64,000 bases of DNA from Anaerolineae bacterium (GTDB lineage Bacteria > Chloroflexota > Anaerolineae > B4-G1 > SLSP01). The position numbers and the translations under genes were made by a program. Each line of letters begins with the position of its first letter. Position 1 is the first letter of the stretch. The notes under the pieces were generated by a model. It ran no database searches. It was not told the DNA's origin and worked only from the letters and a program-made list of their open reading frames with translations. This document shows positions 29,837 to 64,000 of this stretch, in pieces. The stretch is from NCBI GenBank assembly GCA_034429475.1, contig DAOUGD010000126.1, positions 32,818-96,817 on the forward strand, in the 5' to 3' direction.

Positions 29837-29845
29837 GACGAACTG

Positions 29846-40469: not shown

Positions 40470-40602
40470 AGAGGGGGAGAGGAGGAGAGGAGGAGAGGGG
40501 GAGAGGGGGAGACTCAGTCCTCAGTCCTCAGCACTCAGCACCCCTAACTCGCCACTCCTAACTCCTAACTCCTAACTCCTAACTCCTATTTCCTATTTCG
40601 CT
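40470..40602. repeat. composite repeat block: (GGAGA/GGGGA)n purine array, right inverted-repeat copy (40511-40570), then CTAACTC x5 and CTATTTC x2 heptamers ending at the ATG
   Basis: Read directly from the sequence. Its reverse complement matches the block at 38829-38884. Confidence 0.65.
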
Positions 40603-45971: not shown

Positions 45972-46081
45972 AACCTTGTAGGCTTTCGGCAATGTTTGTG
46001 GATGTTTTTTGCATTCTACCGGGGAATTGGATATAATTAAATTGGTTATTTTGATTTTGCTTGCTACTTAGTTCGTTTGAG

Positions 46082-46112
46082 AGGTTGGAAATCGCCAACC
46101 TACTTTTTCTTC
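46082..46112 (+). terminator. hairpin AGGTTGG-AAATCG-CCAACCT followed by a T-rich run
   Basis: Read directly downstream of the YfhO-family gene. Confidence 0.4.
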
Positions 46113-46162
46113 AAACGTTAACCAAACGTTCATTCTATAACTTTATCTTGCATGGGGTTTCG

Positions 46163-46171
46163 TGATATAAT
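46163..46171 (+). promoter_or_regulatory. extended -10 element TGaTATAAT in an AT-rich region upstream of the receiver genes
   Basis: A perfect TATAAT with upstream TG. No clear -35 was found. Confidence 0.35.
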
Positions 46172-46204
46172 TTAGACAGTCACGAGACAACGTAAACAGG
46201 AGTC

Positions 46205-46621
46205 ATGAAGGGAGCAGACATGTTTTTGGACGAAGAAACGAGCGGTCGTGGTGAAAAAATTTTGTACATCGAGGACAATCCCGGCAATCGTATGTTGGTG
46301 CGCCGTATCCTGTTAGTGGAAGACTACGTTGTCATTGAGGCCGAGAATGGCCGGGAAGGCGTAGCGGCGGCTTTGCGTGAAAACCCGGACTTGATCCTGA
46401 TGGATATGAACTTGCCCGAGGTGGATGGTTATGAATTGACCAAGCAGATTCGCGCCATCCCCGAAATTAAAAACATCCCCATTATCGCTATGACGGCGAA
46501 CGTGATGTTGGGGGACAAAGAGAAAACGTTAGAGGCCGGTTGTGATGGCTATATCCCCAAGCCGATTGATGTGGACGAGCTACCACGTCAGATTCGGCGT
46601 TTCCTGGATGCGCGGGGTTAG
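46205..46621 (+). CDS. single-domain CheY-like response regulator (receiver only)
   Basis: ILYIEDNPGN ... LILMDMNLPEVDG ... IAMTA ... KPID. GC is ~52%. Confidence 0.8.
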   Translation: MKGADMFLDEETSGRGEKILYIEDNPGNRMLVRRILLVEDYVVIEAENGREGVAAALRENPDLILMDMNLPEVDGYELTKQIRAIPEIKNIPIIAMTANVMLGDKEKTLEAGCDGYIPKPIDVDELPRQIRRFLDARG

Positions 46622-46664
46622 GGCAGCGCTGGCTGCTTAGGGATCTTTTTAAAGGATTGTACTC

Positions 46665-47084
46665 ATGGCATGGAAGCCGACACTTCCCAAAGACGCGGTC
46701 ATCCTGATTGTGGAGGATAACCTCAATAATTTCATCTTGATGACCCGCTTACTGGCCTTTTTGGGCGTGAAAAAGTGTGAGTGGAAGGCTTCCGGTTGGA
46801 AAGTGTTGGAGTTTGCCGAAACGCTGGGGAACGTCAGCCTGATTCTGATGGATATGAATCTACCAGAGGCCGACGGTTTTCAAGCGTTGGCGTCGTTACG
46901 TTCGCATCAGCGTTTCGTGGATGTGCCGATTGTGGCGGTAACGGCTCACGTATCTAGGGAAAATCTCAGCCGCGCGCGGCAGGCTGGATTTAACGGTTTT
47001 ATCGGCAAGCCTTTGGACCCGGAGCGTTTTCCCGAACAAATCCGCCGCGCCCTGCAAGGTGAGGAGGTATGGGAGCCGGAGTAG
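46665..47084 (+). CDS. single-domain CheY-like response regulator (receiver only)
   Basis: ILIVEDN ... LILMDMNLPEADG ... VAVTAH ... KPLD. Confidence 0.8.
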   Translation: MAWKPTLPKDAVILIVEDNLNNFILMTRLLAFLGVKKCEWKASGWKVLEFAETLGNVSLILMDMNLPEADGFQALASLRSHQRFVDVPIVAVTAHVSRENLSRARQAGFNGFIGKPLDPERFPEQIRRALQGEEVWEPE

Positions 47085-49462
47085 GGGGGGGGCGTTTATC
47101 TGCGAACGTTCCCCGGTCAGTCCCTACCACCGGTATGCGCGGCGGCCTGGGTCGTACCTTGCTGACTGCGTTTCTGATTTTAACTATTTTGCCGCTGACG
47201 TTAACTGTTAGTTATGCCGTCCAGCAGAATCGCCAAAATGTGCAACGTGAAGTCGAAAGCAAGTTGCTGGCGGTTGCCACCCTCAAGGGAGAGGAACTGG
47301 AACGCTGGGTTGACGATTTGCGGTCGGTGTTATTGTTATCGGTAAGGCTGGCCGGCGATACCGACGACTACACGGAATGGTGGACGACCCTCACGCAGCA
47401 AATACCCGATTTGACTGGCGTGGTGGTGTGGAGACCGGAGGAACAGTCCCGCTGGACTGCCGGTGAGTGTGTACAAGCTTGGGATCAATTTCGCCTCACG
47501 GTCTCAGGCGCTAATTTGTTCTCTTCCCCGGCGGAGTTTGCCGTTTCTGACTTTGGCGCAACTGTTTTTTTACCAATCAAATATCAAGACCGTTCCCTCC
47601 TTTTTTGCATGGATGGCGCCATATTGGAGCGGGTGATCCACCATGGGATAGACGGAACCGGCGCGACGCGGGCCTACCTGATCCACAACATGTGTGCCTG
47701 GCCGAGCGCGACGACGCCATGCGCGCCGCCAATGGGGGAGTGGCCCCCGGCAGGGCAATCTGGTAGCGGCGTCTACGTGAACGCGCAGGGTATCTCGGTC
47801 ACAGGCGCGTATTACGCTCTGGCGGCAGAAGTCGGCATCCTGGTGGAACAACCCGAGGCGCACACGTCGGAATCGGTCGAGCTGATTGCGGCGACGTTCA
47901 TCGCCCTCGTGCTGGCCGTGGCGCTGGTCACCACGACGATTGCCGCGTTGGTGATCCGGCAGATCACCCTGCCGGTGATTCGCCTGACGGAGTCGGCGCT
48001 GGCAATGTCAGAAGGAGAACTGGATCAACACCTGGAGGTCACCTCGCGCGATGAGATCGGCATCCTGACGTATGTGTTCAACGACATGGCAGCGCAGTTG
48101 AAGTCGCTGTATGAGGACCTGGAAGCGAAAGTGGTGGATCGCACGCGGCTGCTCCAACGGGCTAACTACCAGATTCAGCGGCGCGCGCTGCACTTGCAGG
48201 CCAGCCAGGAAGTGAGTCAGGCGATCACGTCGGTGCGCGACCCGAATTTGTTGTTTATGCAGATGGCCGATCTCATCCGCGACAGTTTTATGTATGCGTC
48301 GGTCGCCATCTACATGGTGGAGCCGGGGGGCGGTGCGGCGGCGTTGAACGCCCTCAGCCCGGATGTGCGCGGCGCTCGTCCCAGCACCGAGGGGGAAATC
48401 GGTGGTTGGGCGGATTACGTGTACCCCGGCGACGGTTCGGCGGTGGAGCAGGCCATTCGCAAACGCGCTTCTCAGGTCGAGTATCAGGAAACCCGTGAAG
48501 AAGTGGATTGGTATCGCCGCACCTTAAGCCGGGTGGCTGTGCCGCTGCGTATGGGAGATCGGGTCATTGGGGCGATCGCAGCTTTGAGCACCGAGCACGA
48601 AGGCGTGCAGTCCGACGAATTAGAGGTGTTGGAACTGTTAGCCAACCAGATCGCGATTGCGGTGGAAAATGCTCGCGCTTACGAACGGGAGCGAGCGGCC
48701 ACCCACCATCTGGAAGAGGCCGAAGCCTTCAAGGCGCGTTTCCTGGCGAATATGTCGCACGCTTTGCGCGAACCTTTAAACACGGTGATTGGGTTCTCGC
48801 GCTTGATGATCAAGGGCGTAGATGGGCCGCTGACGGATTTGCAACAGCAGGATATGGGGCGCATCTACGAAGACAGCCAGCGTTTGTTGTTCTTGATCAA
48901 CGACATTCTGGCTATTTCCCAAATTCAGGCCGGGTTGATGGAGTTGAAACTGCAACCCATCCATCTTTCCGAAGTGGTCGCCGGCGTGATGCCCACCGCG
49001 ACGGCGTTGGTGCAGGGCAAGGACGTGGAACTGGTGCGCGATATTCCTGATGATTTACCCTTGTTACGCATTGACCCTTCGCATATCCGGCAGGTGTTGG
49101 TGCATTTACTGAACAATGCCGCCAAATTTACCGCTAAGGGGCGGATCACGTTACGGGCCTGGTACCGGGATGATTGGGTGTATGTCAGCGTCAGCGACAC
49201 GGGGGTGGGGATTCCCCCGGAGGATTTGGAGCGTATTTTCGTGCGATTCAATCAGGGCGCCTCGCGGCGCAACGCGCAGCAGGGGGCAGGACTGGGGTTG
49301 GCGCTGTGCAAGGAATTCGTGGAGATGCACGGCGGGCAAATCTGGGCGCAGAGCCGCGTGGATGAAGGCAGCATGTTTACATTTTCACTTCCCTGTTACG
49401 TAGACGGTCAAACCGCACCAGCCAATGCTACGGAATCGCCGGCAGGAGGCCAGGATGAATAA
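47069..49462 (+). CDS. membrane sensor histidine kinase (periplasmic loop, HAMP, GAF, HisKA, HATPase_c)
   Basis: AGGAGG RBS 5 nt before ATG 47069, overlapping the receiver stop by 16 nt. An alternative start is MRGG at 47135. HAMP (LPVIRL ... FNDMAAQLKS), GAF, H-box (FLANMSHALREPLN) and G-boxes (DTGVGI ... GLGLAL) are present. A G9 tract occupies codons 6-8. Confidence 0.8.
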   Translation: MGAGVGGGRLSANVPRSVPTTGMRGGLGRTLLTAFLILTILPLTLTVSYAVQQNRQNVQREVESKLLAVATLKGEELERWVDDLRSVLLLSVRLAGDTDDYTEWWTTLTQQIPDLTGVVVWRPEEQSRWTAGECVQAWDQFRLTVSGANLFSSPAEFAVSDFGATVFLPIKYQDRSLLFCMDGAILERVIHHGIDGTGATRAYLIHNMCAWPSATTPCAPPMGEWPPAGQSGSGVYVNAQGISVTGAYYALAAEVGILVEQPEAHTSESVELIAATFIALVLAVALVTTTIAALVIRQITLPVIRLTESALAMSEGELDQHLEVTSRDEIGILTYVFNDMAAQLKSLYEDLEAKVVDRTRLLQRANYQIQRRALHLQASQEVSQAITSVRDPNLLFMQMADLIRDSFMYASVAIYMVEPGGGAAALNALSPDVRGARPSTEGEIGGWADYVYPGDGSAVEQAIRKRASQVEYQETREEVDWYRRTLSRVAVPLRMGDRVIGAIAALSTEHEGVQSDELEVLELLANQIAIAVENARAYERERAATHHLEEAEAFKARFLANMSHALREPLNTVIGFSRLMIKGVDGPLTDLQQQDMGRIYEDSQRLLFLINDILAISQIQAGLMELKLQPIHLSEVVAGVMPTATALVQGKDVELVRDIPDDLPLLRIDPSHIRQVLVHLLNNAAKFTAKGRITLRAWYRDDWVYVSVSDTGVGIPPEDLERIFVRFNQGASRRNAQQGAGLGLALCKEFVEMHGGQIWAQSRVDEGSMFTFSLPCYVDGQTAPANATESPAGGQDE

Positions 49463-51389
49463 GAAGCAGACATCCATTGCCGAGGAACCGATGTCTCGGG
49501 ATGCCATGGAATCGTGGCAGCGCGATCTGTTCGCGCGGATGCTGCGGATGATCACGGTGGCGACCTTCCCCGTGGTGCTGACCGGGCTGTATTACGCCTA
49601 TGTGACTCAAAATCTCTGGCTGGCGCCGGCGATTTGGGGGGCATACAGTGTGATTATCCTCAGCGCCTTTGTCCCTCGGATTCCTTATTCCTTGCGCGTC
49701 TGGGCTTTTCTAGCAGTCCTGCTGGTGATGGGGCTGGGGGACTTGTTGACCTACGGCTGGGGGCGGGATGTGCGCATTTATTGGATCGGCGCCATGCTGT
49801 TTGCCACGCTCTTTCTGGGCGGACGTCATGGGCTGATGGTGTTGATAGGCACTTGCCTCCTCTTGGGCGCGTTTGTCGTGGGCGTCGTCACCGGACTATT
49901 GGTCCCCTCTTATGATTCGATGAGCGCCTATCCGCCTTTTGCCCTGATCGTTGGGTGGATTGTTTTCGTAGTCCTGGCGATAGGACTCTATGCCACGTTC
50001 AATTATCTGTTCCCCCGGCTGCTGACCGCTTTGCAAAAGAGCGCCGCCCTATCCGCCTCCCTGGAGGAGCAGCAGAACGTCCTGGCCGAGCGCACACGGG
50101 CACTCCAGGAAGCCAACACGAATTTGCAGCGGCGGGCCATGTACCTGGAGGCCAGCACACAGGTTTCTCAGGCATTGGCGACGGTGTTTGAGTTGGAGAT
50201 TCTGTTGGAACAGGCGGTGAACCTCATCGTGCAGCACTTTGATTTCTACCGCGCGGTCATTTTCCTGGCAGAAGAGGATGGGCAGTCGGCGCGGCTCTAC
50301 GCCTCCGCGTCGGTGGGCGGGCGGCGGATGACGCTGCGGACACAACGTTGGCGCGCCGGGGAACACAATGCGGTGGGGGTGGCGTTGGCTAATCGTCAAC
50401 CGTGTGTCATGACCACCGGCAAACGCACGATGCCCTATGCGACAGAAGTGGACCTCTCTATGGTGCGGGCGGAAGCGGCGCTGCCGCTGCTGGTGGGCGA
50501 GCGGCTGCTCGGCGTGTTGGACATATATAGCGGGGAAGAAGCCGCTTTCGATCCCGACGATGTGCGCGCCCTGCAAGGCCTGACCGGCCTGCTGTCGGTG
50601 GCGGTGGACAATGCGCGCCGGCTCGGCGACGAGGCGGCGGTTCTGGAAGCCGCCAGCCCCTTGTACCGGCTAGCGCATCGCCTGGCGACGACGCGCACCG
50701 AGCGCGAGATTTACGCAGCGATGTTGGAATCGCTGCGTGACTTCAACCCGGCGCGCGTCTTCATCTTCCGCCAGAGCCGCCTGCCCCATGCGCACATGTC
50801 CGCGGCGGAACAAGCCTATCTGGTGGCCGAAATGCGCGGTGCCGAAATCAATTTCCACGATCAGTATCTCACGGCCGCCAACATCCGCCACATCGGAGAT
50901 TTGATCAATTTCGGGGTCACGTTGGAATCTGCCGTGGTGATCGGCGATTTGAGCGCATCCTACCATTCCGGCGACGCCGATGTGGATCGTGTCCTGGTTA
51001 ACCTGGCTACCGAACTGGGCATTTTGGCGTTGGCGCTGGCGCCGATGCGGTTGGAGTCACAGTGTTTGGGGGTGGTTTTGATCACCTACAACACCCCCCA
51101 TCAGTTCACCCCGTTGCAGGGGCAACTCCAGCGCGTGTTGGCGAACTTGGCGACGGTGGCGTTGGAGCGGATCCGGCTGCTGCACGAGGCGCAGACCCGT
51201 GTGAGCCGGGAACGCTGGCTGCGGGAGTTCGGCGAGCAGGTGATGCGCATCCCTGACCTGGAAATGATGGTTGCGCAATCGGCCCAAATGCTCCAGGACG
51301 TGGTACAGGCGGATGGCGTCCTGCTGTCTCTCGCGCCGCCGGACACGGATGCGGGAAGGACGGCCTGGGGAGGCAAAGGTGCGGGATAG
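49455..51389 (+). CDS. polytopic-membrane (5-6 TM) coiled-coil protein with three GAF domains, no output domain (paralog 1 of 8)
   Basis: GGAGG RBS and an ATG overlapping the kinase stop by 8 nt. TM bundle, then a coiled coil (LEEQQNVLAERTRALQEANTNLQRRAMYLEAS), then GAF (FDFYRAVIFLAEEDG ... LPLLVGERLLGVLDI). No H-box or ATPase motif was seen. Confidence 0.65.
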   Translation: MNKKQTSIAEEPMSRDAMESWQRDLFARMLRMITVATFPVVLTGLYYAYVTQNLWLAPAIWGAYSVIILSAFVPRIPYSLRVWAFLAVLLVMGLGDLLTYGWGRDVRIYWIGAMLFATLFLGGRHGLMVLIGTCLLLGAFVVGVVTGLLVPSYDSMSAYPPFALIVGWIVFVVLAIGLYATFNYLFPRLLTALQKSAALSASLEEQQNVLAERTRALQEANTNLQRRAMYLEASTQVSQALATVFELEILLEQAVNLIVQHFDFYRAVIFLAEEDGQSARLYASASVGGRRMTLRTQRWRAGEHNAVGVALANRQPCVMTTGKRTMPYATEVDLSMVRAEAALPLLVGERLLGVLDIYSGEEAAFDPDDVRALQGLTGLLSVAVDNARRLGDEAAVLEAASPLYRLAHRLATTRTEREIYAAMLESLRDFNPARVFIFRQSRLPHAHMSAAEQAYLVAEMRGAEINFHDQYLTAANIRHIGDLINFGVTLESAVVIGDLSASYHSGDADVDRVLVNLATELGILALALAPMRLESQCLGVVLITYNTPHQFTPLQGQLQRVLANLATVALERIRLLHEAQTRVSRERWLREFGEQVMRIPDLEMMVAQSAQMLQDVVQADGVLLSLAPPDTDAGRTAWGGKGAG

Positions 51390-53055
51390 TCAGAAGCAGA
51401 TCGAGCCAGAAGTCGCCGCAGCGGACGCCGAAATCCGTGAGCTGCAGCATACCCTGTTGACCCACGTGATCCAGGTACTCTTTTGGGCCGGGATACCGGC
51501 GTTGGTGATGGGCATCTATTACGTCGTCACCGATGGCGATTGGATCTACGGCCTGGCGTATATCGGGCTTTTTCTCGTCCTGGGAATCCTCCGTCTGGTC
51601 AAGCGTATCCCCTACGGCGCCCAAATCGGCAGCCTGTTGGCGCTGGCCTATGGCCTGGCCCTGTTATCGGTCTTTCGCGGGGGATTGTCGAGCAACGTGC
51701 GCCTGTTTTTGCTGATGCTGCCCTTTATGGCCGTGGTGTTCTTGGGCGCGCGGGCCGGGCTGGTGCTGCTGCTGCTTTCCCTGTTGACCCTGGGTGAGTT
51801 TGCCGGGCTGTTTTCACTGGGGATCATGGAAATATCCACCGACGTGCAGGTCTTGTCCCACAAACCGGTGGCCTGGTTCAGCTACACCTTGACGTGGCTG
51901 TTTGCCAGTGTTTTTGTGGTAGCCTCCTTGACCCAACTGCTCACCCGTTTCCGGGCAACATTGATCAAAAGCCATGATCTGACCTACAAACTGGACACGC
52001 AGCGAATGCAGGCAGAGCAGAGCGCCGAATATGCGAACTTGCACGCCGTGCGGATGCAGTGGGTGGCCGAATTTGGCAATGCGTTAGCCTCACTGCGCCG
52101 GCGGGAAATGGTAGCATGGCGCACAGTGCGGGAGATGGAACGCAGCCTGAACCTCTATCAGGTGAATGTCTTCCTGGCCGACCGCACTGGCTCTACGTTG
52201 GTGCTGGCGGCGGCCGCCGGCGTGCAGGGCGAGACGCTGGTCGCCGAGGGCCTGTCGGTATGGGTGGGGGAACGATCGCTGTTGGGGAAAGTGGCGCAGA
52301 CCGGACGTGAACAAATTCGCGTGTTGTCGCCCGACGAAATGGAATACTTCCCGTTGAGCCGGGTGGAGACAGCCCTACCGCTGGTTGTGCGCGGTGAACT
52401 GTTGGGCATCTTAGACATTCACAGCACGGAATCCACATTTTCGGAGAGCGACATGCAGCTCTTTCGCGTGGTAGCCGGGTACGTGACGACTTCCCTGGAT
52501 ATGCTGGCCGCGCTGGAAGAGATCAACGGGCAGCTTCAGGAGATGCGCGCGTTGTATAACCAATACACCATCGCTTCGTGGCGTTCCTTGTTGGCGGAGA
52601 AGCTGAAATTGTCCTACGCCACCGGCGCGCTTTCTGAGGATCCCATCCAAACCCTGGCGGCCGAGGCGTTGCAGACCCGCACGGTGCGTTCCCGTCCGCC
52701 GGGTGAGGGGCTGGACGAGTACCTGCTCGTCGTGCCGTTGATTGCGCGGGACCTGCCTTTGGGCTATGTGGCCTTTACCCGTTCGGGAGAGCTGGGCGAC
52801 TGGGACGCTGAGACGCGCGTTTTCATCGAAGCCGCTGCCGAGCGTCTGGCGCTGGCGCTGGATAACACCCGCCTGTTGGTACAGACACGGCGGCAAGCCT
52901 TCTATCAGGAACAGTTGGGCCGCCTGGATGACGTGGTGTGGCGCAACCCGAGCACCGCTGCTATTATGGAGGGCAGTGTGCAGGAACTGGGGCGCGTCCT
53001 GGATGCCAGTGAAGTGCAAGTTTACCTGACGCCGATGGTGTGGGAGGCGCAATGA
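51379..53055 (+). CDS. polytopic-membrane coiled-coil protein with two GAF domains, no output domain (paralog 2)
   Basis: GTG start after GGGGAGG, overlapping the upstream stop by 11 nt (the ORF is open from 51271). ~6 TM helices. GAF (LNLYQVNVFLADRTG ... LPLVVRGELLGILDIHS) and a second GAF. Confidence 0.6.
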   Translation: MRDSQKQIEPEVAAADAEIRELQHTLLTHVIQVLFWAGIPALVMGIYYVVTDGDWIYGLAYIGLFLVLGILRLVKRIPYGAQIGSLLALAYGLALLSVFRGGLSSNVRLFLLMLPFMAVVFLGARAGLVLLLLSLLTLGEFAGLFSLGIMEISTDVQVLSHKPVAWFSYTLTWLFASVFVVASLTQLLTRFRATLIKSHDLTYKLDTQRMQAEQSAEYANLHAVRMQWVAEFGNALASLRRREMVAWRTVREMERSLNLYQVNVFLADRTGSTLVLAAAAGVQGETLVAEGLSVWVGERSLLGKVAQTGREQIRVLSPDEMEYFPLSRVETALPLVVRGELLGILDIHSTESTFSESDMQLFRVVAGYVTTSLDMLAALEEINGQLQEMRALYNQYTIASWRSLLAEKLKLSYATGALSEDPIQTLAAEALQTRTVRSRPPGEGLDEYLLVVPLIARDLPLGYVAFTRSGELGDWDAETRVFIEAAAERLALALDNTRLLVQTRRQAFYQEQLGRLDDVVWRNPSTAAIMEGSVQELGRVLDASEVQVYLTPMVWEAQ

Positions 53056-55277
53056 GTCTGACGCCATCTTTTAGCCAGATATTACAATGGCTGGCCCTGT
53101 CGTTGGCCCTGTTGGAAATCATCCTGCTGGGGTATCTCGTGGCGTTGAACCTGGGGCGCTCCCCCCTCCAGTTTGCGCGGCAGTGGTTATTGCGCACGCG
53201 CCTGCTGGTCTTGTTGCTGACGATCACCACCCCCCTGTTGACGGCCGGCATCGTGTGGGTGGTGGCCCAGGCGATGCAGTTGGTGGAAGCGAATGAGGCT
53301 CGGCGCCTGGAAGCGCTGAACGCGGCCCTGCTCTCCAATGCCGAGTTGTGGTACGAACTCCATACAGACGCCTTGAGCCAGTTAGTATCCGCACCGGCCA
53401 TCGTTAGCATGGATCCGGCGCAGCAGAAGTCTTTTCTGAAAATCATGGCCCAGACGCATCCCGACATGTACCTGGTAAGCACTCTAAATCTGACAGGGAT
53501 GAACGTCACACGCAGCGACGCCCTCCCTTTGACCAATTACGCCGACCAATCCTGGTTCCAGGCGGTGCAGTCCGGCGCCCCTCAGGTTTTCCAGGTAGTG
53601 GTGGAATCTACCGCCGGTATTCCCGCGTTGATAGGCGCCATGCCCATTTATGACAGCCGTGAGAACCTCGTGGGCGTCGGTATGTTCGCCTGCGCCCTGA
53701 CCGACATGGCTTCCCAGATGCGCCCCCAGACGGTGGGCAACACAGGGTATGCGTATATGGTGGACAGCAAAAATCGCCTGTTGGTGCATCCCGATCCGAC
53801 GGTGATGGCGCAGGCCGGCGACCTTGGCGAGTATCCATCGGTGAAAGCCCTACGCGCGCACACCGGCCCCTTGGTGAAATTCGAGAGCGAGGGCCGCCGG
53901 TGGTGGGCCGCCGTCAGCGAGGGTGGCCCGGACTGGGGCATTGTAGTGCAGCAGCAGGAGTTGGAACTGTTGCGGGACATGCGCACGTTTATGCAACTCG
54001 CGTGGCTGGTGGGGTTGGTGTGCGTGGGACTGTTGGCCCTGGCAAGCTACCTGGCGTTGCGTCAGGCCTTCCAACCCATCGTGGCATTGACCGGGACGAT
54101 CAATGCCGTTGTGGCAGGCGATTGGAGCCGCAGCCTCCCGGTGGAAAGAGGGGACGAATTGGGCGCGCTGGCGCGAGCCTTTAACGGCATGACCTCTCAA
54201 ATCCGGGACCTGATTCACACGTTGGAGTCGCGCGTGGCGGATCGCACCCGCGACTTGGAACAGCGTGCGACGTACCTGGCCGTCACGACCCAGGTCAGTC
54301 GCGTCGTCAACGCCATCCTGGACGTAGACGAATTGCTGCCGCGCGTCGCGCACCTGATTACCGATCGGTTCGGATTTTATCACGTCGCCATCTTTATGTT
54401 GGACGAAAGCGGCGAATGGGCCATTCTGCGCGCGGCCTCTTCTGAGAGGGGGCAGGGCATGGTGGCGCGCGGCCATCGCTTGCGCGTGGGTGAGCAGGGT
54501 ATCGTGGGCTATGTATCGAGTTCCGGGCGCCCGCGCATTGCGCTGGACGTGGATGTGGATGCCGTGTGGATGAAAAGCCCGGACTTGCCGACTACCCGCT
54601 CGGAAATGGCCTTGCCCTTAAGTGTGGGCGACCGGGTGTTGGGTGTTCTGGACATTCAGAGTGAGACGCCATCTGCCTTTTCCATAGAAGATGTGGAAAC
54701 GCTGCGGGTCCTGGCCGATCAAATCGCCATTGCAATTCAAAATGCACGACTGTTTCAAGGCAGCCAGCGGGCGCTGCGGGACTTGCAGCGCGCTTATGGC
54801 GAAACGGGGGCGCGGGCCTGGCGCACGCGCGCCTCGGCCCTGTTGGGGTACCGTTACACCCCCGAAGAAACCCGCCCGATTCTCGAATTACCCGAGACGC
54901 CGACGGATGCGATGAACTCCACCCACGTCACGCCCGCTAACACGTTGGTGGCGCCGCTGCGGATGCTCGGTGGGCGATCCTTTGGCGTTTTGCGGCTGGC
55001 CCGGCTTCCGGCGCAGCCCTGGACGGCGCAGGAGATTCAATTTGTCCAGCAGGCGGCGCAGGGGATAGCCCAGGCTTTGGAAGTTGGGCGTCTGTTAGAG
55101 GAGACCCGCGACCGGGCGGCACGCGACCATCTGGTCGGAGAGATTGGGGGGCAATTGCGCACAACTTTGGATCCCGATGCCATCATGAAGACGACGGTGC
55201 AGGCATTGGGACGCTTGTTGAAGGCCGAGTTGACCACCATTGAAGTCAGTGGCGGCTATGATGGAACGGATGGATAA
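53052..55277 (+). CDS. Cache-like, HAMP, GAF, GAF membrane sensor protein without output domain (paralog 3)
   Basis: GGGAGG RBS and an ATG overlapping the upstream stop. TM1, then a Cache-like periplasmic domain (NYADQSWFQAV ... GYAYMVDSKNRLLVHPDP), then TM2, HAMP, GAF (FGFYHVAIFMLDESGEWAILRAASS ... LPLSVGDRVLGVLDIQS), a degenerate GAF, and a C-terminal ELGRLL module. Confidence 0.65.
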   Translation: MSLTPSFSQILQWLALSLALLEIILLGYLVALNLGRSPLQFARQWLLRTRLLVLLLTITTPLLTAGIVWVVAQAMQLVEANEARRLEALNAALLSNAELWYELHTDALSQLVSAPAIVSMDPAQQKSFLKIMAQTHPDMYLVSTLNLTGMNVTRSDALPLTNYADQSWFQAVQSGAPQVFQVVVESTAGIPALIGAMPIYDSRENLVGVGMFACALTDMASQMRPQTVGNTGYAYMVDSKNRLLVHPDPTVMAQAGDLGEYPSVKALRAHTGPLVKFESEGRRWWAAVSEGGPDWGIVVQQQELELLRDMRTFMQLAWLVGLVCVGLLALASYLALRQAFQPIVALTGTINAVVAGDWSRSLPVERGDELGALARAFNGMTSQIRDLIHTLESRVADRTRDLEQRATYLAVTTQVSRVVNAILDVDELLPRVAHLITDRFGFYHVAIFMLDESGEWAILRAASSERGQGMVARGHRLRVGEQGIVGYVSSSGRPRIALDVDVDAVWMKSPDLPTTRSEMALPLSVGDRVLGVLDIQSETPSAFSIEDVETLRVLADQIAIAIQNARLFQGSQRALRDLQRAYGETGARAWRTRASALLGYRYTPEETRPILELPETPTDAMNSTHVTPANTLVAPLRMLGGRSFGVLRLARLPAQPWTAQEIQFVQQAAQGIAQALEVGRLLEETRDRAARDHLVGEIGGQLRTTLDPDAIMKTTVQALGRLLKAELTTIEVSGGYDGTDG

Positions 55278-55298
55278 CCTGCCCCGGGTGCGGAGGCT

Positions 55299-57146: not shown

Positions 57147-59365
57147 AGCGGCTGTCATTCATTACGAAGAATCTGCTCAACCGGATGATCGCCTATGTAC
57201 TGGTGTTGCTGCTGTTGACCATCAGCCTGATGGGGTATTTGGCTTACATCCTCGCGCGTCAAAACCTGACCGACTCGGTCTTCAATCGCCTGGAATCGGT
57301 GGTGACACTCAAGGAAGACGAATTGCAGCGTTGGGTAGCGGATCAGCGGCAGAACGTTACCTGGATGGCAGGGCAAGAGCCGGTGCGTCGCTGGACCGCG
57401 CAACTGCTTCAAGGCGATGTTGAACGAGCGACCGTTTACACCACGTTTTGGGCTTATTTACGGGCCGCCGTGACGCAAAGAGCCGGACTGCGGGAACTCT
57501 TTGTGCTGTCTGTGCCGGAGGGTCAGGTGTTGATTTCCTCCACTCAAGCGCACGAAGGGCAATCTCAGGCGGCCGCCGAGTACTTCATCCAGGGCCGTGC
57601 GGGAATTTATGTCCAGACCATCTACGTGGCGGAGGATGGCGAGCCGACCATCACCATCGCCAACCCGATATTTAACGCCGCCGGAGAATGTATCGGCGTA
57701 CTGGCGGCGCATCTGAATTTGGAGCGGATGCAACAGATTATCCTGGAAGGACCGGGCATGGGCGCCCGCAGTGAGGTCTTTCTGGTGGATGGCGCCGGCG
57801 ACTTCGTCGTGGCGCCCCGCGCGTTGTTGGCCGCCGGCGTGGACCTGGGGGCGTTGACTGCCGGGGTACGGGCGGTGATCGCGGGGCAAGACGGGCAGGC
57901 CACTTATTCAACCTATGAAGGTCATTCGGTGCTGGGCGCCTATCATTGGCTGGATGAGTACGGCCTGGGGGTCGTGGCCGAGGTGGGTGAAGATTACGCC
58001 ATTCTGGCGCCAGCGCGTCGCTTGTCGGCAACGGTGTTGGCGGTTGGATCGGGCGCGTCCATCCTGTTGCTGATCGGTGCAGTCTTGCTGATGCGACAAG
58101 GAATGCAGCCGTTGCGCGCGCTGACCGAGGTCGCCCGTGAAGTCGCGCAGGGACGGCTGGACCGACAGGCCCCTGTCGTCACCGAGGATGAGTTGGGCGT
58201 CTTCGCGCAGACGTTCAATCAAATGACCGCGCAACTGCGCGCGTCGTATGCCGAACTGGAACAGCAAGTGCGTGTGCGGACCCAGACTCTGGAAAAACGT
58301 TCACGTCAGTTGGAGGCGGCGGCGCGCGTCGCCAGCGCCGTCTCGGCCATCTACAACGTGGACCAACTGTTGGACGAGACCGTGCGCTTGATCCCGACCC
58401 ACTTTGACGTAGATCATGCCGGCATCTTCCTTTTGGATGAGGCCGAGGAATACGCCGTTCTGCGGGCGGCCTCTTCGGAGGGGGGGCTGCGGATGTTGGC
58501 GCGCGGCCACCGGCTGCGGATCGGGCAGGGGATTGTCGGCTCCGTGGCGCACACCGGTCAGCCTCGCATCGCCCTGGATGTGGACGCCGACGGCGCGTTC
58601 GTACCTAACCCAGACATTCCGGCGACGCGCTCGGAAATGGCGCTGCCCCTGCGGGCGCGCAACCGGGTGATTGGCGTGCTGGACGTGCAGTCGGAGCAGG
58701 CGGCAGCCTTCGCTGAAGAGGATGTTTCGGTGTTGCAGACGATGGCGGAGCAGGTGGCCCTGGCGATTCAGAATGCGCGTCTGCTGCGAGAAAGTGAGTT
58801 CGCGGTGCGCGAGTTGGAGCGACGCTATGGAGAGCAAATTCATACCGCGTGGCAGGCGCGGCTTTCCCGTGAGGCGGCAGCCTATCGCTACACCGGTGTG
58901 CGGGTGGAACCGGCCGGGGGGCGCACCCTACAAAAGTTCCCGGCCATTCCGCCCGATCACGTCACGTTAGTGAATGAGGGTGAGGCGGGGCGGCGTCTGA
59001 CCGCGCCGATTCGGATGCGGGATCACATTTTGGGTTCGATTGTGTTGCAGCAGAACCCGGACGAGCCGCCGTGGTCGGAGGCCGACATGACGCTGTTAGA
59101 AGCCACCTGCGATCAGATTGGTATGGCGTTGGACAATGTCCGCTTGTTGGATGAGTCACGGGAACGGGTGGCCCGCGAGCGGCTGACCGGCGACCTGGCC
59201 GCGCGGATTCGGGCGGCCTCCACCGATATAGACGTGGTGTTGCAGACCACCATCCGCGAGTTGGGTCGGCTGTTGCACGCCACCGGCAAAATTCACCTGA
59301 GCGGGCCTTCTGCCTGGGCCTCCACCGCGGCGGAGAATTCTGCCGAGAGCGAAAGGCAGGCGTAA
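57143..59365 (+). CDS. Cache-like, HAMP, GAF, GAF membrane sensor protein without output domain (paralog 5)
   Basis: ATGA overlap with the upstream stop. TM1, a Cache-like domain, TM2, HAMP (LRALTEVAREVAQGRLDRQ ... FNQMTAQLRAS), GAF (HFDVDHAGIFLLDEAEEYAVLRAASS ... LPLRARNRVIGVLDVQS), a second GAF and a C-terminal IRELGRLL. Confidence 0.65.
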   Translation: MKRLSFITKNLLNRMIAYVLVLLLLTISLMGYLAYILARQNLTDSVFNRLESVVTLKEDELQRWVADQRQNVTWMAGQEPVRRWTAQLLQGDVERATVYTTFWAYLRAAVTQRAGLRELFVLSVPEGQVLISSTQAHEGQSQAAAEYFIQGRAGIYVQTIYVAEDGEPTITIANPIFNAAGECIGVLAAHLNLERMQQIILEGPGMGARSEVFLVDGAGDFVVAPRALLAAGVDLGALTAGVRAVIAGQDGQATYSTYEGHSVLGAYHWLDEYGLGVVAEVGEDYAILAPARRLSATVLAVGSGASILLLIGAVLLMRQGMQPLRALTEVAREVAQGRLDRQAPVVTEDELGVFAQTFNQMTAQLRASYAELEQQVRVRTQTLEKRSRQLEAAARVASAVSAIYNVDQLLDETVRLIPTHFDVDHAGIFLLDEAEEYAVLRAASSEGGLRMLARGHRLRIGQGIVGSVAHTGQPRIALDVDADGAFVPNPDIPATRSEMALPLRARNRVIGVLDVQSEQAAAFAEEDVSVLQTMAEQVALAIQNARLLRESEFAVRELERRYGEQIHTAWQARLSREAAAYRYTGVRVEPAGGRTLQKFPAIPPDHVTLVNEGEAGRRLTAPIRMRDHILGSIVLQQNPDEPPWSEADMTLLEATCDQIGMALDNVRLLDESRERVARERLTGDLAARIRAASTDIDVVLQTTIRELGRLLHATGKIHLSGPSAWASTAAENSAESERQA

Positions 59366-59367
59366 CC

Positions 59368-60591
59368 ATGGCGACGTGGGGTTGGTTGGTTATCATCGCG
59401 GTAGTGCTGGCGGTGGCTGGCGGCGTGGTGGCGTGGCAGTGGCGGCGCGTTCAGGCGCTGCTGGCCCAACAGCACCTATTGGAACGGCGCATAGCCGAGC
59501 TAATGGACGTCCAGACGACAGAACGGCAGCACTTGACGCAGCAGGCTGAAGCCTTTGCGCAGCGCCTGGAGCGTTTCCGGGCGGCAGCGCTGGTGGCGCG
59601 GGATGCCGCCGCCATTCGTAACTTGGACGAATTGATGCAGGCGTTGGTGACGCTGATCTCGCAGCGCTTCGACTTTTATCATGCCGGGGTGTTCTTGTTG
59701 GATGATGCCGGCGACTTCGCGGTGATGCAGGCGGCGTCATCCGAAGGGGGGCGGCAAATGCTGGCGCGGGGACACAAACTGCGGGTGGCCGAGCAGGGGA
59801 TCGTGGGGTACGTGGCGGCGCGGGGGGAAGCGCGCATTGCCCTGAACGTCGGCGAGGACGCGGCCTGGGCCAGCGCGCCGGAACTGCCGAAAACTCGCTC
59901 AGAGATGGCGCTGCCTTTGAAGGTGCGCGAGCAGGTCATTGGCGTGCTGGACGTGCAGTCTACCGAACCGCAAGCCTTTATCCAGGAGGACATTGAAGTA
60001 CTCCAAACAATGGCCGATCAGTTAGCCTTGGCGATTCAGAGCGCGCGGCTGTTTGAGGAAAACCGGCGCACCGTCGAGCGGTTGGAGATCCTGTACCGGG
60101 AGCAGATGGGGGAAATATGGCGCAGCCGGGTCGGCACGCGCACCTACATCTACGATGGCCTGAACGTCGCGCGCGCGCTGGCGGAGGAGACGCCGGCGTT
60201 GGTCAATAGCCAGCACGTGGTCACGTCACACCAGTTGGTCATCCCGATCTTCCTGCGCGAGCACGTCATCGGTTCGATCACCCTGGAACGCGATCCGATA
60301 CAACTGCCCTGGTCGGATGAAGAGGTGGCGTTGGTGGAAGAGATCGGCGTGCAGGCCGGCCTGGCGCTGGACAATGCACAGTTGTTGGCCGACAGCCGGC
60401 AGCGCGCGACGTACCAGCAGCAGCTCAGCGACGTGTCACGGGTCTTTTCCGGGGCCGTGAACATGGAAGCAATGTTGCAGGCCGCCGTGCGTGAGTTGGG
60501 GCGGCTGCCGGGGGTGGCGGAGGTGGCCGTCCACATTGACGCTCCCCGCGCCGTTGCGAATGACATTGAGCAAGCGGCGAATGACGAATAG
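59368..60591 (+). CDS. single-TM coiled-coil GAF, GAF protein without output domain (paralog 6)
   Basis: N-terminal TM (WGWLVIIAVVLAVAGGVVAW), a coiled coil, GAF (FDFYHAGVFLLDDAGDFAVMQAASS ... LPLKVREQVIGVLDVQS), a second GAF and a C-terminal VRELGRL module. Confidence 0.65.
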   Translation: MATWGWLVIIAVVLAVAGGVVAWQWRRVQALLAQQHLLERRIAELMDVQTTERQHLTQQAEAFAQRLERFRAAALVARDAAAIRNLDELMQALVTLISQRFDFYHAGVFLLDDAGDFAVMQAASSEGGRQMLARGHKLRVAEQGIVGYVAARGEARIALNVGEDAAWASAPELPKTRSEMALPLKVREQVIGVLDVQSTEPQAFIQEDIEVLQTMADQLALAIQSARLFEENRRTVERLEILYREQMGEIWRSRVGTRTYIYDGLNVARALAEETPALVNSQHVVTSHQLVIPIFLREHVIGSITLERDPIQLPWSDEEVALVEEIGVQAGLALDNAQLLADSRQRATYQQQLSDVSRVFSGAVNMEAMLQAAVRELGRLPGVAEVAVHIDAPRAVANDIEQAANDE

Positions 60592-60646
60592 CGAATTACG
60601 AATGACGAATAACGAATTACGAATCACGAATTGTGAATTTCGGATG
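60582..60646. repeat. 8-mer tandem repeat (CGAATNAC variants x8) spanning the stop codon of paralog 6
   Basis: Read directly from the sequence. It belongs to the same family as the array at 29846. Confidence 0.65.
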
Positions 60647-60656
60647 AGGCAGGTCA

Positions 60657-63470
60657 ATGGCTGCTAAAAAGAGAGAGACGCTGATATCGGTGAAACCATC
60701 GAGCAGCGCGCGCCCCCGCCCGACGGTGGGGTTGCTGCTTTCCTGGCTGCGGGATGATTATCAAAGCGGCCTGGTGATGGATATGCATACGATAGCCCAA
60801 AAATTGGGGGTGGACTTGCTGTGTTTTGTGGGCGGCGATTTGCGCGAGGCGTATCCGCAAAACGTGATCTACGATCTGATCTCCTCCCAATGCGTGGAGG
60901 GTCTGATCATCAGTCCTTCCCTGTCGCACGCTTGCGACCCCGCCGTCCTGCACAATTTCTACGCCCGGTTTGCGGACCTCCCGCTGGTGAGCGGCGCGTT
61001 TGGCGTGCCGGAAATCAATCAGATTTTGTGCGACAACCTGGTGGGGATGCGCCGGGCGGTCGAACATCTTATTGTCGAACACCACTATCGCCGGATTGCC
61101 TTCGTCCGAGGGCCGGTGGGCCAGCCGGAGGCAGAGGCGCGGTATCAGGCATATCAAGAGGTGCTGGCCGCGCACCAGATTCGCCTGGATGAGAAATTAG
61201 TCATATTGGGCGACTTTACCGGCCCTGGTTCTCGCGCGGCTATTACCGAATGGCTCCAAAAGGGTGAGATTGTGGACGCCATTGTGGCTTCCAATGACGT
61301 CAGCGCGATGATTGCCATGGAAATATTGACGGCCCATGGCCTGCGGACGCCGGAGGACGTGGCAATAGTGGGGTTCGATGATGTGCCGGCCGCGCGCGCC
61401 CTGAGTGTGCCCCTGACGACCGTGCGCCAGCCGTTCTCCCAGATGTCGGAAATGATGATGGCGAACTTGCTGGCGCAGATCCGGGGAGAAACGCCGCCGG
61501 TCATCCAGATGGTGCCCTCTGAGTTGATTGTGCGTCGTTCGTGCGGCTGCCTGCCGGCATCGGTCCAACAGGCGCAGTTGGAAATGAGCGCGTATGTTGG
61601 CAAGGAAATCCTGGTGATGTCACGGGAGACCGTCCCGCAGGACGTTCCAGAAGTGCTGTGGTATGCCATGGTGGACGAGTTGGAAGGTGTCCTGGAGGGC
61701 AAATTCCTGGTCGCCTTTGACCAGATGTTGCACCAGACCTACCAGATGCATGGCGATATGGAGCGCTGGCAGGGAGTATTATCCTCTCTGCGCCATGCGG
61801 CGATGCTGTATGGGGTGCGGCAGCGTGCGGCGCGCCCGGAGTTCTTCGGCGCGCCGTTGGTGATGCGGCTGGAGACGCTCATACAGCAGGCGCGGATTCT
61901 GGCCAGCGAGGCAGCGTTGCGTATGAGCACTCGGCTGCGCCAGGACGACCGGGTGTATGTAGCCAATTCTCAGGCGTTGGATAGGGCGATGAACGCAGTG
62001 TTGGATTTATCTGAGCTGCCTGGGGTGTTTGCCCGTTTTTTGCCTCCCATTCCCATGAACATTTGCCACATAGCCCTCTATGCCGGAGATGGGCCAGCGT
62101 TCACTTCCCGCGCCCGGTTGGCGGTGAGTTACACACGCGGCCAATCGCAATTCCACCCAGACTCGGCTGCTTACCCGGCTACTGATTTGTTGCCGGCGCC
62201 TCTGTGGCCGCCGGCAGAACGGACGACCGTGGTGATTATGCCGTTGTTGATGCAAAACCAACAGTTGGGATTCGCCTTTCTGGGGCATGACTCTCCCCAC
62301 ATCTGGGTTTATGACCAGCTCAGCAGCCAATTGAGCGGGACTGTTTTTCGCGCCCTGCTGATCCAGCAACAGCAGGAAGCGCAGCGCGATGTGGAGCGGC
62401 TGTTGGCCGACCTCCAGCGGCGCGCTCGCTTGCTGGCCGGCGCTGCCGAGATTTCACGGGCCGCCACCTCGCTCACCCACCTGAGTGAGTTGCTGCCCCG
62501 TGCGGCGACGTTGATTTGTGAGCATTTCCGGTTGTACTATGTTGGAATTTTCCTGCTGGACGAGAGCCGGCAGTGGGCCGTGTTGAGTGCGGACGCCGGG
62601 GCGGCCAACCATCGCCTGTTGGAGCAGGGGTACAAACTGTCTGTCGGCCCTTCGTCCCTGGTGGGAACGTGTATGGCGACGGGGCAGGCTCAGGTGACGG
62701 CGGATGTGACGACGCAGGTCTCCTCTTACCTGGCGCACCCCTTGCTGCCGGACACTCGTTCCGAAGCCGTGCTGCCTTTGCTCAGCCGGGAGCGCGTGGT
62801 GGGCGCCATGAGCATCCAATCGGCCGAGCCGGAGGCCTTTTCCGCAGATGACCTGACGACGCTCCAGACGATGGCCGATCAGTTGGTCAATGCGATTGAA
62901 AATGTCCGCTTACTGGAACAAATGACGGAGAGCCGTTATGAATTGGAGATGGCCTCCGGGCAGTATACGGCCGAATCGTGGCGGGAGTACGTGAGTCACG
63001 CGGCGCAGCAGTTGGGGTATCGTTACCGGCAGGTGGCCGTGGAGCCGACCGCCGAAAAATCCCCTGAAGCGCAAATAGCCTTGGAACGCAATGTACCGGT
63101 GCTGGTGCCCTTGCTGGAAACCCCCGGTGTGCGCAGCGCGTTGGCTACTCCCATCCGCCTGCGCAATCAAATCCTCGGCGTGCTGAATGTGCGTTTTGAA
63201 GAGAGCGACGTGCCGCCCGAAACGGTGGAGTGGGTGAACCAGGTCGCTGATCGTCTGGCGATCTCGTTGGAGAGCGTGCGTTTGTTGCAGGAAACGCGCA
63301 GCACGGCCGAACGTGAGCAGTTAGTCGGGCGGGTGACGGCCCAAATGCGGGCGAACCTGGATGTGGACGCGGTCCTCAGAACGGCCGCCGCTCAGATCCG
63401 TGAGGTCATGGACCTGTCGCGGGTCACGATCCGCCTGGCGACCCGACCGCAAAAGTCAGACGAAGGCTGA
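60657..63470 (+). CDS. cytoplasmic LacI-type periplasmic-binding-fold (PBP type 1) domain fused to GAF domains, no output domain (paralog 7)
   Basis: The N-terminal ~330 aa resemble a LacI/sugar-binding core (LLLSWLRDDYQSGLVMD ... VGFDDVPAARALSVPLTTVRQP). Then GAF (FRLYYVGIFLLDESRQWAVLSADAG ... LPLLSRERVVGAMSIQS), further GAF-like modules and a C-terminal module. Confidence 0.6.
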   Translation: MAAKKRETLISVKPSSSARPRPTVGLLLSWLRDDYQSGLVMDMHTIAQKLGVDLLCFVGGDLREAYPQNVIYDLISSQCVEGLIISPSLSHACDPAVLHNFYARFADLPLVSGAFGVPEINQILCDNLVGMRRAVEHLIVEHHYRRIAFVRGPVGQPEAEARYQAYQEVLAAHQIRLDEKLVILGDFTGPGSRAAITEWLQKGEIVDAIVASNDVSAMIAMEILTAHGLRTPEDVAIVGFDDVPAARALSVPLTTVRQPFSQMSEMMMANLLAQIRGETPPVIQMVPSELIVRRSCGCLPASVQQAQLEMSAYVGKEILVMSRETVPQDVPEVLWYAMVDELEGVLEGKFLVAFDQMLHQTYQMHGDMERWQGVLSSLRHAAMLYGVRQRAARPEFFGAPLVMRLETLIQQARILASEAALRMSTRLRQDDRVYVANSQALDRAMNAVLDLSELPGVFARFLPPIPMNICHIALYAGDGPAFTSRARLAVSYTRGQSQFHPDSAAYPATDLLPAPLWPPAERTTVVIMPLLMQNQQLGFAFLGHDSPHIWVYDQLSSQLSGTVFRALLIQQQQEAQRDVERLLADLQRRARLLAGAAEISRAATSLTHLSELLPRAATLICEHFRLYYVGIFLLDESRQWAVLSADAGAANHRLLEQGYKLSVGPSSLVGTCMATGQAQVTADVTTQVSSYLAHPLLPDTRSEAVLPLLSRERVVGAMSIQSAEPEAFSADDLTTLQTMADQLVNAIENVRLLEQMTESRYELEMASGQYTAESWREYVSHAAQQLGYRYRQVAVEPTAEKSPEAQIALERNVPVLVPLLETPGVRSALATPIRLRNQILGVLNVRFEESDVPPETVEWVNQVADRLAISLESVRLLQETRSTAEREQLVGRVTAQMRANLDVDAVLRTAAAQIREVMDLSRVTIRLATRPQKSDEG

Positions 63471-63473
63471 GCA

Positions 63474-64000
63474 ATGATGAAACCACGCGAGAGAAACTGG
63501 GATTTAGGGATTGCCCGCTGGCCTATTTTCTATAAGGTCTTTGTCTTCGTCGGCCTGATTGCCCTGTTGGGCATTGGCGGCGTCAGCGCCGCTCTGATGA
63601 AGTTTTCCTACGACCGCTTGCAGGAACAGGCCCACACCGCGCTGCTCAACTCGGCCAGGCAACAGGCCGACTGGGTGGCCACTCTGTTGCTGGAGCAAGT
63701 CGCCTTTGTGCGGCACATCGGGCTGGATAGCGCGCTGACGACCGAGGCCGCCGCCCGCAGCCGCGAGTACGATCTGACGGCGGCGTTGACGCGGGCGGAG
63801 GAATGGCGTCAAGCCGCGGACGACAGCGAGTTGGTACGGCAAGTCGTGTCTGCCGACCTGAACCCCCTAGTCGGCGTGTTGCAGACTTATGCGCAGGAAT
63901 ATCCGGCGGTAGTGGCGTTGTTGGTGGTGGAGCGCCATGGCAACACGTTGGCGGCCACCTATCGTCCGGAGGCTTACCACCAACAGGAGGCGGACTGGTG
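63474..64000 (+). CDS. membrane sensor protein, N-terminal part (TM plus Cache-like extracellular domain); 3' end outside window (paralog 8)
   Basis: ATG 4 nt after the upstream stop; hand translation (MMKPRERNW...) is open to the window end. A TM helix (IFYKVFVFVGLIALLGIGGV) and a Cache-like start are visible. Confidence 0.5.
   Translation, partial: MMKPRERNWDLGIARWPIFYKVFVFVGLIALLGIGGVSAALMKFSYDRLQEQAHTALLNSARQQADWVATLLLEQVAFVRHIGLDSALTTEAAARSREYDLTAALTRAEEWRQAADDSELVRQVVSADLNPLVGVLQTYAQEYPAVVALLVVERHGNTLAATYRPEAYHQQEADW

Follow-up and report, generated by a model that had tools for sequence, protein, structure and literature searches.

How can a bacterial sensor protein act when it carries no output domain of its own? 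The question is raised by a gene array of an Anaerolineae bacterium, at positions 46205-64000 of a 64,000-nucleotide stretch of contig DAOUGD010000126.1 (the whole stretch is called the window). The listing of open reading frames (ORFs) in the window places eleven tightly packed genes there, all on the + strand. They encode two single-domain receivers, one histidine kinase, seven complete sensor-GAF proteins (paralogs A to G) and the N-terminus of an eighth (paralog H; Table 1). This eleven-gene run forms the 5' portion of a signalling super-operon conserved in the Anaerolineae (Chloroflexota), of which the window shows roughly the first third. With a probability of about 0.5, the sensor-GAF proteins are receptors that feed many inputs into the few transmitters encoded with them, in a logic akin to that of chemoreceptor arrays or the stressosome.

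An earlier note, made from the letters of the DNA, had described the eleven co-directional genes as packed like a single operon. The ORFs and their junctions bear this out. The overlaps of 8, 11, 4 and 4 nucleotides (nt) given there are found again with starts preceded by Shine-Dalgarno sequences, and the remaining gaps measure 24, 2, 65 and 3 nt. Alternative starts lie at 49425 for paralog A, 51271 for B, 53040 for C and 55299 for D.

Enzymatic or DNA-binding output is missing from the receptors throughout the family. At a Pfam cut-off of E<0.01, no kinase, cyclase, GGDEF/EAL, HD-GYP, phosphatase or helix-turn-helix (HTH) match was found in the seven complete paralogs. The same is true of any output domain in a random sample of 65 members from over 40 genomes, which contain GAF, HAMP, Cache, MASE11, PAS, binding-protein and similar sensor types only. 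HisKA, HATPase_c, MCPsignal (PF00015) and STAS were likewise absent from both the window paralogs and the sampled members, and no catalytic or DNA-binding domain was found on any of these receptor polypeptides. The profile search proposed in the earlier note thus returns no output domain for genes 4-10, and HisKA and HATPase_c in gene 3, the kinase, only.

The earlier note had counted eight output-less paralogs. Seven are complete and answer this description. The eighth is cut after 175 residues, so that its core and any output lie outside the window. These visible residues have no Pfam match and are 53% identical to a collinear protein of 783 amino acids (aa) on a related metagenome contig (L001; faint dCache and GAF matches). 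It is only in this counterpart that the GAF core and the missing output of paralog H can be seen.

What the receptors have in common is a cytoplasmic module. In it, a conserved GAF domain is joined by a helical linker to a reduced GAF, after which a short stub of helix and strand forms the start of a further GAF. A sensor is joined to the module through HAMP and/or a coiled coil, and this sensor may be of the MASE11, dCache, LacI or PAS type, or may be missing. Among the window paralogs, the first GAF has a mean identity of 37%, compared with 23% in the reduced GAF and 27% in the stub. The conserved GAF motif quoted in the earlier note matches three paralogs almost exactly and the remaining four more loosely. 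Its "one or two degenerate GAFs" are actually one reduced GAF and a truncated terminal GAF, represented by helix 1 and strand 1.

The receptors show the GAF fold, a six-stranded antiparallel sheet with flanking helices. In an AlphaFold model of paralog F (407 aa, pLDDT 84), the transmembrane (TM) helix is continuous with an 80-residue helix, which leads into a canonical GAF. After it come a long linker helix, a small sheet of 4-5 strands, a second long helix and a short helix. Foldseek searches with this model retrieve GAF, tandem-GAF and GAF-containing phytochrome structures, and fold searches yield GAF folds only. Ligand-sensing GAFs, those of PtsP and of the NifA type, are among the best structural matches.

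Comparison of profile with profile shows where the receptors stop. The closing part of the reduced GAF matches the last third of the family GAF (98%, E=6e-14). The 50 residues at the very C-terminus match instead the first third, with its linker helix, helix 1 and strand 1 (78%, E=2e-5), and the stub aligns with the first 49 positions of the family profile. Each receptor therefore terminates just inside a further GAF. In the 394 members with an intact C-terminus, the protein ends a median of 11 residues past the stub. That reduced GAF and stub together form one circularly permuted GAF is unsupported for the monomer: the stub helix forms, and the stub strand is undocked, in both AlphaFold models (full-length and C-terminal module alone).

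The array is, to judge from these and the following comparisons, ancient and ordered. Recent tandem duplication, which the earlier note had suggested examining, can be ruled out. The window paralogs share 25-45% identity with each other, while positional orthologs in distant genomes reach 34-50%. For instance, one locus (L032) has orthologs of C (50%), D (46%) and E (50%) in consecutive order. Another (L006) has an ortholog of A (39%) and a 939-aa ortholog of G with the same LacI-type sensor (34%), and a third (L046) has orthologs of A, D and E. In one metagenome relative (~78%; L001, L002 and L068), the window genes occur in identical order with 67-82% identity, and this order is the same across three independent assemblies.

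For all seven paralog pairs between the window and the ~78% relative, the ratio of nonsynonymous to synonymous substitution rates (dN/dS) is 0.08-0.19, an approximate figure as dS is near 1. Such values indicate purifying selection. Because, in addition, 394 members stop the same distance past the stub, the ORF ends can be taken as genuine. This speaks against the sequencing frameshifts that the earlier note had named as a possible refutation, by which the ORFs would have been cut from kinase segments.

The synteny survey that it had also proposed places the array in a wider setting. One genome per GTDB species was scanned, and the best 80 of 497 confirmed stretches gave 78 distinct loci. All are from Chloroflexota, among them the cultured Anaerolinea thermolimosa IMO-1 (L061). 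Three profiles built here, for first GAF, reduced GAF and stub, were used to annotate all ORFs of these loci, which yielded about 400 family proteins. Adjacent family pairs are co-directional in 357 of 357 cases. The arrangement recurs gene for gene in the ~78% relative and as arrays in 78 further loci, which is far beyond chance.

A database search with paralog F finds thousands of relatives in Anaerolineae, Thermoflexales, Ardenticatenales and unclassified Chloroflexota. They are annotated just as "GAF domain-containing protein" (sometimes with "/HAMP"), and NCBIfam holds no specific model for the receptors. Sizing the family by a profile of the C-terminal module was tried and rejected. This profile gave 112,852 matches among 1.84 billion representative proteins and recognises GAF-GAF junctions generally. 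Because its top matches are giant multi-GAF proteins with 8-22 matches each, it is unusable for counting. In the giants P0134-P0283, of 1,400-3,950 residues, the profile matches 6-22 times per protein. This GAF subtype thus occurs in very long tandem multi-GAF proteins, and one locus (L008) encodes a multi-GAF hybrid kinase of 3,283 aa.

A cluster usually begins with receiver 1, receiver 2, sometimes a kinase, and then 5-17 receptors. Towards the 3' end come a ParA-like ATPase and a hybrid kinase, in most cases soluble with several GAFs, and then a receiver fusion of a threonine-synthase-like enzyme and an EamA transporter. The upstream edge of the array is visible in 23 loci. The first receptor is preceded there by two receivers in 12 loci, by two receivers and a kinase, as in the window, in 3, by one receiver in 1 and by a kinase in 3, so that receivers stand at this edge in 16 of the 23. 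The window's order of two response regulators (RRs), kinase and receptors is found also in L006 and L046. The two receivers form distinct ortholog groups. The RR1 type is first and the RR2 type second in 15 of 15 loci, and the acceptor Asp is kept throughout. The window follows the same pattern, with an RR1-type and an RR2-type receiver before co-directional proteins made of GAF, reduced GAF and stub. Both of its receivers have the ED pair, the acceptor Asp, the Thr (AMTA/AVTA) and the Lys (PKP/GKP) conserved in receivers, as seen by Pfam and in the translations.

The downstream edge is visible in 40 loci. A kinase stands there in 27, in most of these preceded by a ParA/MinD-type ATPase of about 261 aa. 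Thirteen loci show a threonine-synthase-like pyridoxal-phosphate (PLP) enzyme of about 555 aa, with a C-terminal receiver detected in 11 of the 13. An EamA-family transporter is usually next after this gene, and NMT1-type binding proteins are scattered within some arrays. In Anaerolinea thermolimosa IMO-1 the whole is compact: one receiver, four receptors, the ParA-like ATPase, the hybrid kinase, the threonine-synthase-like receiver fusion and the EamA transporter. Its conserved terminal set (L061:11177-19526) occurs also in L038, L040, L048, L050, L063 and L076, and the hybrid multi-GAF kinase of this set has two receiver domains. A threonine-synthase-like enzyme under receiver control beside an exporter suggests, from the gene content, the regulated production and release of an amino-acid-like compound.

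The cluster of the ~78% relative can be followed through two contig extensions over about 45 kb, and these contigs end within the array. The order is kinase, 15 receptors, a PP2C module, two more receptors and an NMT1-type binding protein, which gives at least 17 receptors. One of the first 15 is 1,520 aa long and has six PAS domains. The PP2C module (L082:12289-15756) interrupts the array with four genes. These encode a membrane-bound GAF-PP2C phosphatase, an slr1658-family protein (which belongs to the SiaB-like kinase superfamily), an slr1659-superfamily protein and a soluble protein of 216 aa made of only a coiled coil, a reduced GAF and a stub. That reduced GAF and stub also occur as a stand-alone protein, beside the three others, suggests that they may be an autonomous interaction unit.

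The fifteenth receptor of the relative (L003:19941-21305; P0121) has an HK_sensor_dom_bact/dCache sensor that is 27-36% identical to that of methyl-accepting chemotaxis proteins (P0127-P0133). The only one of these with a named source is from the cyanobacterium Coleofasciculus. The same sensor is thus combined with a GAF module in some proteins and with the signalling domain of a chemoreceptor in others.

Two kinds of cluster kinase can be told apart. One is membrane-bound, such as L045:12836-16252, which reads dCache-HAMP-GAF-reduced GAF-GAF-HisKA-HATPase. Here the receptor architecture is followed by a third, full-length GAF and then by a kinase core, which supports a link between receptors and kinases. 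Domain fusions of this sort are classical evidence of a functional link.

The other kind is soluble and follows the ParA-like gene. These kinases have no TM segment and several family GAFs. All 14 (L038:14733-18083, L048:13608-18425, L061:11928-16880 and 11 others) begin with a conserved basic peptide, MSKKxKINKRLDKLFxDIxxEE, continue with a disordered linker of 50-70 residues rich in Pro, Ala, Ser and Lys, and then show the last third of a GAF alone (profile positions 120-170) before the first full GAF. A basic N-terminal peptide beside a ParA-type gene is the usual mark of cargo positioned by ParA, as in ParB, TlpT with PpfA, and McdB. By this analogy the peptide is likely to be a ParA-interaction peptide, and the pair of ParA-like gene and basic kinase N-terminus would fit organised signalling clusters.

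How, then, might the receptors work? Their receptor character follows from the TM segments predicted before the GAF in 328 of 349 complete members, from their Cache, MASE, PAS and binding-protein sensors, and from the sensor in common with cyanobacterial chemoreceptors. A kinase or a receiver as their partner is the most economical reading, because the receivers stand in fixed order, kinases flank the arrays, and some cluster kinases are the receptor architecture plus HisKA-HATPase. The earlier note had proposed the single window kinase or the two receivers. The receivers and flanking kinases keep this proposal alive, but the window kinase is probably neither the sole candidate nor the main one, because in most genomes the kinase stands at the 3' end of the array.

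The association of receptors with kinase or phosphatase, the direction of the signal, the sign of regulation and the final output can be inferred as follows. Differently tuned receptors, mostly anchored in the membrane, would act as helical dimers. Their state would pass through the shared GAF and linker module to cluster kinases built from the same modules and, in the lineage of the window, probably also to the GAF-PP2C phosphatase with which they would associate. These transmitters would govern the phosphorylation of the two conserved single-domain receivers. The threonine-synthase-like enzyme-receiver fusion adjoining the EamA-type transporter would, in most genomes, come under their control as well.

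Several points weigh against this reading. The GAF of the window kinase, taken in the earlier note to be of the same type, is a distant relative: it is 24-32% identical to the paralog GAFs, and the family GAF profile matches it with E=1e-19 versus 1e-47 to 1e-84. The kinase also has neither reduced GAF nor stub, and pairing of matched modules with it therefore finds little support. No ParA, soluble kinase or PLP-receiver gene was seen along the roughly 45 kb over which the relative's cluster could be followed. The undocked stub strand has low confidence in both AlphaFold models. Finally, a receptor-kinase heterodimer would leave the dimerisation helices of the kinase unpaired, which predicts inhibition and not activation. 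The receptors might be decoys resembling truncated kinases, whose non-productive heterodimers with full-length cluster kinases let stimuli titrate kinase activity down, by analogy with the inhibition of GacS by RetS. Receptor architecture indeed equals the N-terminal part of the fused cluster kinases, cut off shortly after the start of the last GAF, and dimeric kinases require two dimerisation (DHp) helices, of which such a heterodimer has one. Decoys are rather unlikely all the same, since 8-17 different inhibitors in fixed order under purifying selection are hard to explain, and the window kinase offers no reduced GAF or stub to pair with. Alternatively, the receptors may be independent of the kinases, with a first GAF that binds one shared small molecule, or that binds the two receivers or other targets directly, and the clustering may reflect ancestry and co-regulation. 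The first GAF is the best conserved part of the module, GAFs are classical small-molecule binders, and PtsP and NifA-type ligand-sensing GAFs are the top structural matches. Independent action is unlikely, however, as it leaves unexplained the stub at every C-terminus, the fused receptor-kinase forms, and the constant flanking receivers, kinases and ParA-like gene.

In a further alternative, the stub would complete the incomplete GAF of a partner in trans and so recruit that partner to a membrane receptor. The obvious partner would be the orphan C-terminal GAF third that opens the soluble kinases. The stub matches the start of the GAF profile, the orphan piece of all 14 soluble kinases complements it, and the stub strand is free in the monomer models. 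But arrays with membrane kinases of the fused type carry the same stubs and no orphan piece, the window kinase lacks the piece too, and an orphan third beside a full GAF may be nothing more than a reduced GAF; docking of this kind is quite unlikely. Quite unlikely, too, is a wider, undescribed apparatus in which ordered arrays of up to 17 or more receptors dock soluble hybrid kinases through such a split GAF, a dedicated ParA-like ATPase positions the complexes, and phosphorylation controls the threonine-synthase-like enzyme and the EamA exporter. If real, it would amount to a counterpart of chemoreceptor arrays made from GAFs, whose output is metabolic or secreted: the regulated synthesis and release of an amino-acid-derived compound. 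It is hardly credible, by comparison, that the paralogs are functionless, whether as decaying remnants of duplicated kinases or as assembly or frameshift artefacts. Their architecture does resemble that of kinases minus the catalytic end. This explanation is contradicted by the intact ORFs, the low (approximate) dN/dS values, the same C-terminal end in 394 proteins from independent assemblies, and the identical gene order in three independent assemblies of the relative.

Receptors that share a few transmitters would matter for several reasons. Few filamentous bacteria are as abundant as the Anaerolineae in activated sludge, anaerobic digesters, sediments and aquifers, and to our knowledge little is known of how they sense their environment. 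A cluster tens of kb long, with eight receptors in the window and at least 17 in the ~78% relative, may be their main sensory integrator. Input-only signalling proteins are common in genome censuses. The present array indicates that output-less sensors can make up a large, ordered and conserved system, and signal relay by input-only proteins becomes a testable question. The compact cluster of the cultured Anaerolinea thermolimosa IMO-1 is a direct route to biochemistry. If receptors do dock kinases by GAF modules or by a split GAF, this would be a new principle of receptor-kinase assembly, and the docking module could be used as a modular scaffold for synthetic sensors.

Table 1. The receptor operon and associated features in the window (window coordinates).
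Feature	Position	Strand	Description
Candidate promoter region	45972..46204	+	AT-rich, 233 bp, intergenic, 5' of receiver 1
Receiver 1	46205..46621	+	Single-domain response regulator, 138 aa; Pfam Response_reg 3.3e-28; acceptor motif LILMDMNLP
Receiver 2	46665..47084	+	Single-domain response regulator, 139 aa; Pfam Response_reg 6.1e-20
Membrane histidine kinase	47069..49462	+	Periplasmic sensor between 2 TM segments (near residues 27 and 278), then HAMP, GAF, HisKA, HATPase_c (Pfam); H-box FLANMSHALREPL in translation
Paralog A	49455..51389	+	MASE11 multi-TM sensor, GAF, reduced GAF, C-terminal GAF stub (Pfam and family profiles); start overlaps kinase stop by 8 nt, AGGAGG upstream; 78% ortholog in L001
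Paralog B	51379..53055	+	MASE11 sensor, GAF, reduced GAF, stub; inferred GTG start; 11-nt overlap with paralog A, GGAGG upstream; ortholog in the ~78% relative 558 aa
Paralog C	53052..55277	+	dCache_1, TM, HAMP, GAF, reduced GAF, stub; ATGA overlap
Paralog D	55302..57146	+	One TM, weak HAMP, GAF, reduced GAF, second GAF, stub; three Pfam GAF stretches
Paralog E	57143..59365	+	dCache_1, TM, HAMP, GAF, reduced GAF, stub; ATGA overlap
Paralog F	59368..60591	+	Minimal form, 407 aa: one TM, long coiled coil, GAF, reduced GAF, stub
Tandem heptamer repeat	60578..60647		ACGAATN, ~10 copies (Tandem Repeats Finder)
Paralog G	60657..63470	+	LacI-type ligand-binding domain, long linker, GAF, reduced GAF, stub; Pfam Peripla_BP_3 1.9e-29, Peripla_BP_1 and GAF; no TM predicted, hence cytoplasmic
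Paralog H	63474..64000 (runs past window end)	+	175 N-terminal residues: one TM and start of periplasmic domain

The intergenic region 5' of receiver 1 is likely, from its sequence, to hold the operon promoter. Its best sigma-70-like match is at 46008-46037 (TTTGCA-18-TATAAT, 10 of 12 positions), and a terminator-like hairpin lies at 46082-46101, 3' of the gene preceding the operon. The promoter and terminator scan gave no enrichment over shuffles, so the match is weakly informative and no more than consistent with a promoter. An Rfam scan of the whole window found no RNA element.

The heptamer array in Table 1 starts in the last codons of paralog F and occupies most of the 65-nt gap before paralog G. 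Further intergenic heptamer arrays are found at 18766-18821, 29838-29903, 40543-40588, 43760-43793 and 43947-43978. The units across all these arrays include CCTACTT (8 copies), ACGAATT (9), CCTAACT (7), ACGAATN (10) and others. They are reminiscent of the short tandemly repeated heptamers of filamentous cyanobacteria.

Three other places in the window may be mentioned. A 910-aa ORF at 5323-8055 (+) fuses an FtsW/RodA-type (SEDS) polymerase with the dimerisation and transpeptidase domains of a penicillin-binding protein; SEDS polymerases and their penicillin-binding-protein partners are usually separate genes. Directly 5' of the operon, at 43239-45971 (+), lies a multi-TM protein, also of 910 aa, with no Pfam match. 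The two membrane proteins are equal in length but proved unrelated on comparison. At 8217-11327 (+), the gene after that of an OmpR-type response regulator (234 aa) encodes a HEAT-repeat protein of 800 aa instead of a kinase.

The earlier note knew of no described system of this kind. No description of such a cluster was found in the literature either, the coverage of which is incomplete, so that one may exist; the family itself is annotated, under its generic GAF name only. The domain parts are all of known kinds, and the arrangement at the level of the system is apparently undescribed. Comparison with known systems can nevertheless be made at several points.

Chemosensory arrays also have many output-less TM receptors with Cache, HAMP and PAS sensors and one conserved cytoplasmic module, served by few kinases and by single-domain CheY-like receivers. 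A ParA-like ATPase, comparable to PpfA and ParC, is present in most of the related clusters. The cyanobacterial Tax/Pix operons are similar in layout, as the two receivers, receptors and hybrid kinase parallel pixG-pixH-pixI-pixJ-pixL. There, PixJ controls the kinase PixL and two response regulators (PMC11181946). In contrast, the kinases of the Anaerolineae clusters are of the HisKA type without Hpt or P5, and the shared module is built on GAF and not on a four-helix hairpin. No CheA (Hpt, P5) or CheW was found among the eleven window genes or the scanned accessory genes of related loci, and no MCPsignal, CheR or CheB in the window operon or the scanned related proteins.

The stressosome (RsbR, RsbS, RsbT, with the PP2C phosphatase RsbU) resembles the array in another way. 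It, too, uses paralogous sensors with variable N-termini, a conserved C-terminal module and no enzymatic output, and it feeds one kinase/phosphatase switch. The array of the ~78% relative embeds GAF-PP2C, SiaB-like slr1658-family and slr1659-family proteins. Unlike stressosome proteins, the receptors have no STAS domain and are mostly membrane proteins, and the partner-switch genes lie outside the window and are absent from most related loci.

Convergence of several sensors on one phosphorylation output through protein contacts is known from RetS, LadS and GacS of Pseudomonas and from the LovK/SkaH type of Caulobacter. Those sensors keep their kinase cores, and their genes are scattered in the genome. 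The Anaerolineae receptors, by contrast, have no kinase core and are encoded in one long operon.

Sensor kinases and enzymes with tandem GAFs (DosS/DevS, HAMP-GAF-like kinases of the NarX/NarQ type, CyaB2, PDE2/5) are among the closest structural matches to the receptors. In these parallel helical dimers, GAFs joined by long helices relay signals to a catalytic domain at the C-terminus. Both the window kinase and the fused cluster kinases are sensor kinases of this tandem-GAF kind, whereas the window paralogs break off within the last GAF and lack any catalytic domain. In its logic the cluster is closest to chemoreceptor arrays, and in its fold it belongs with the tandem-GAF kinases and enzymes.

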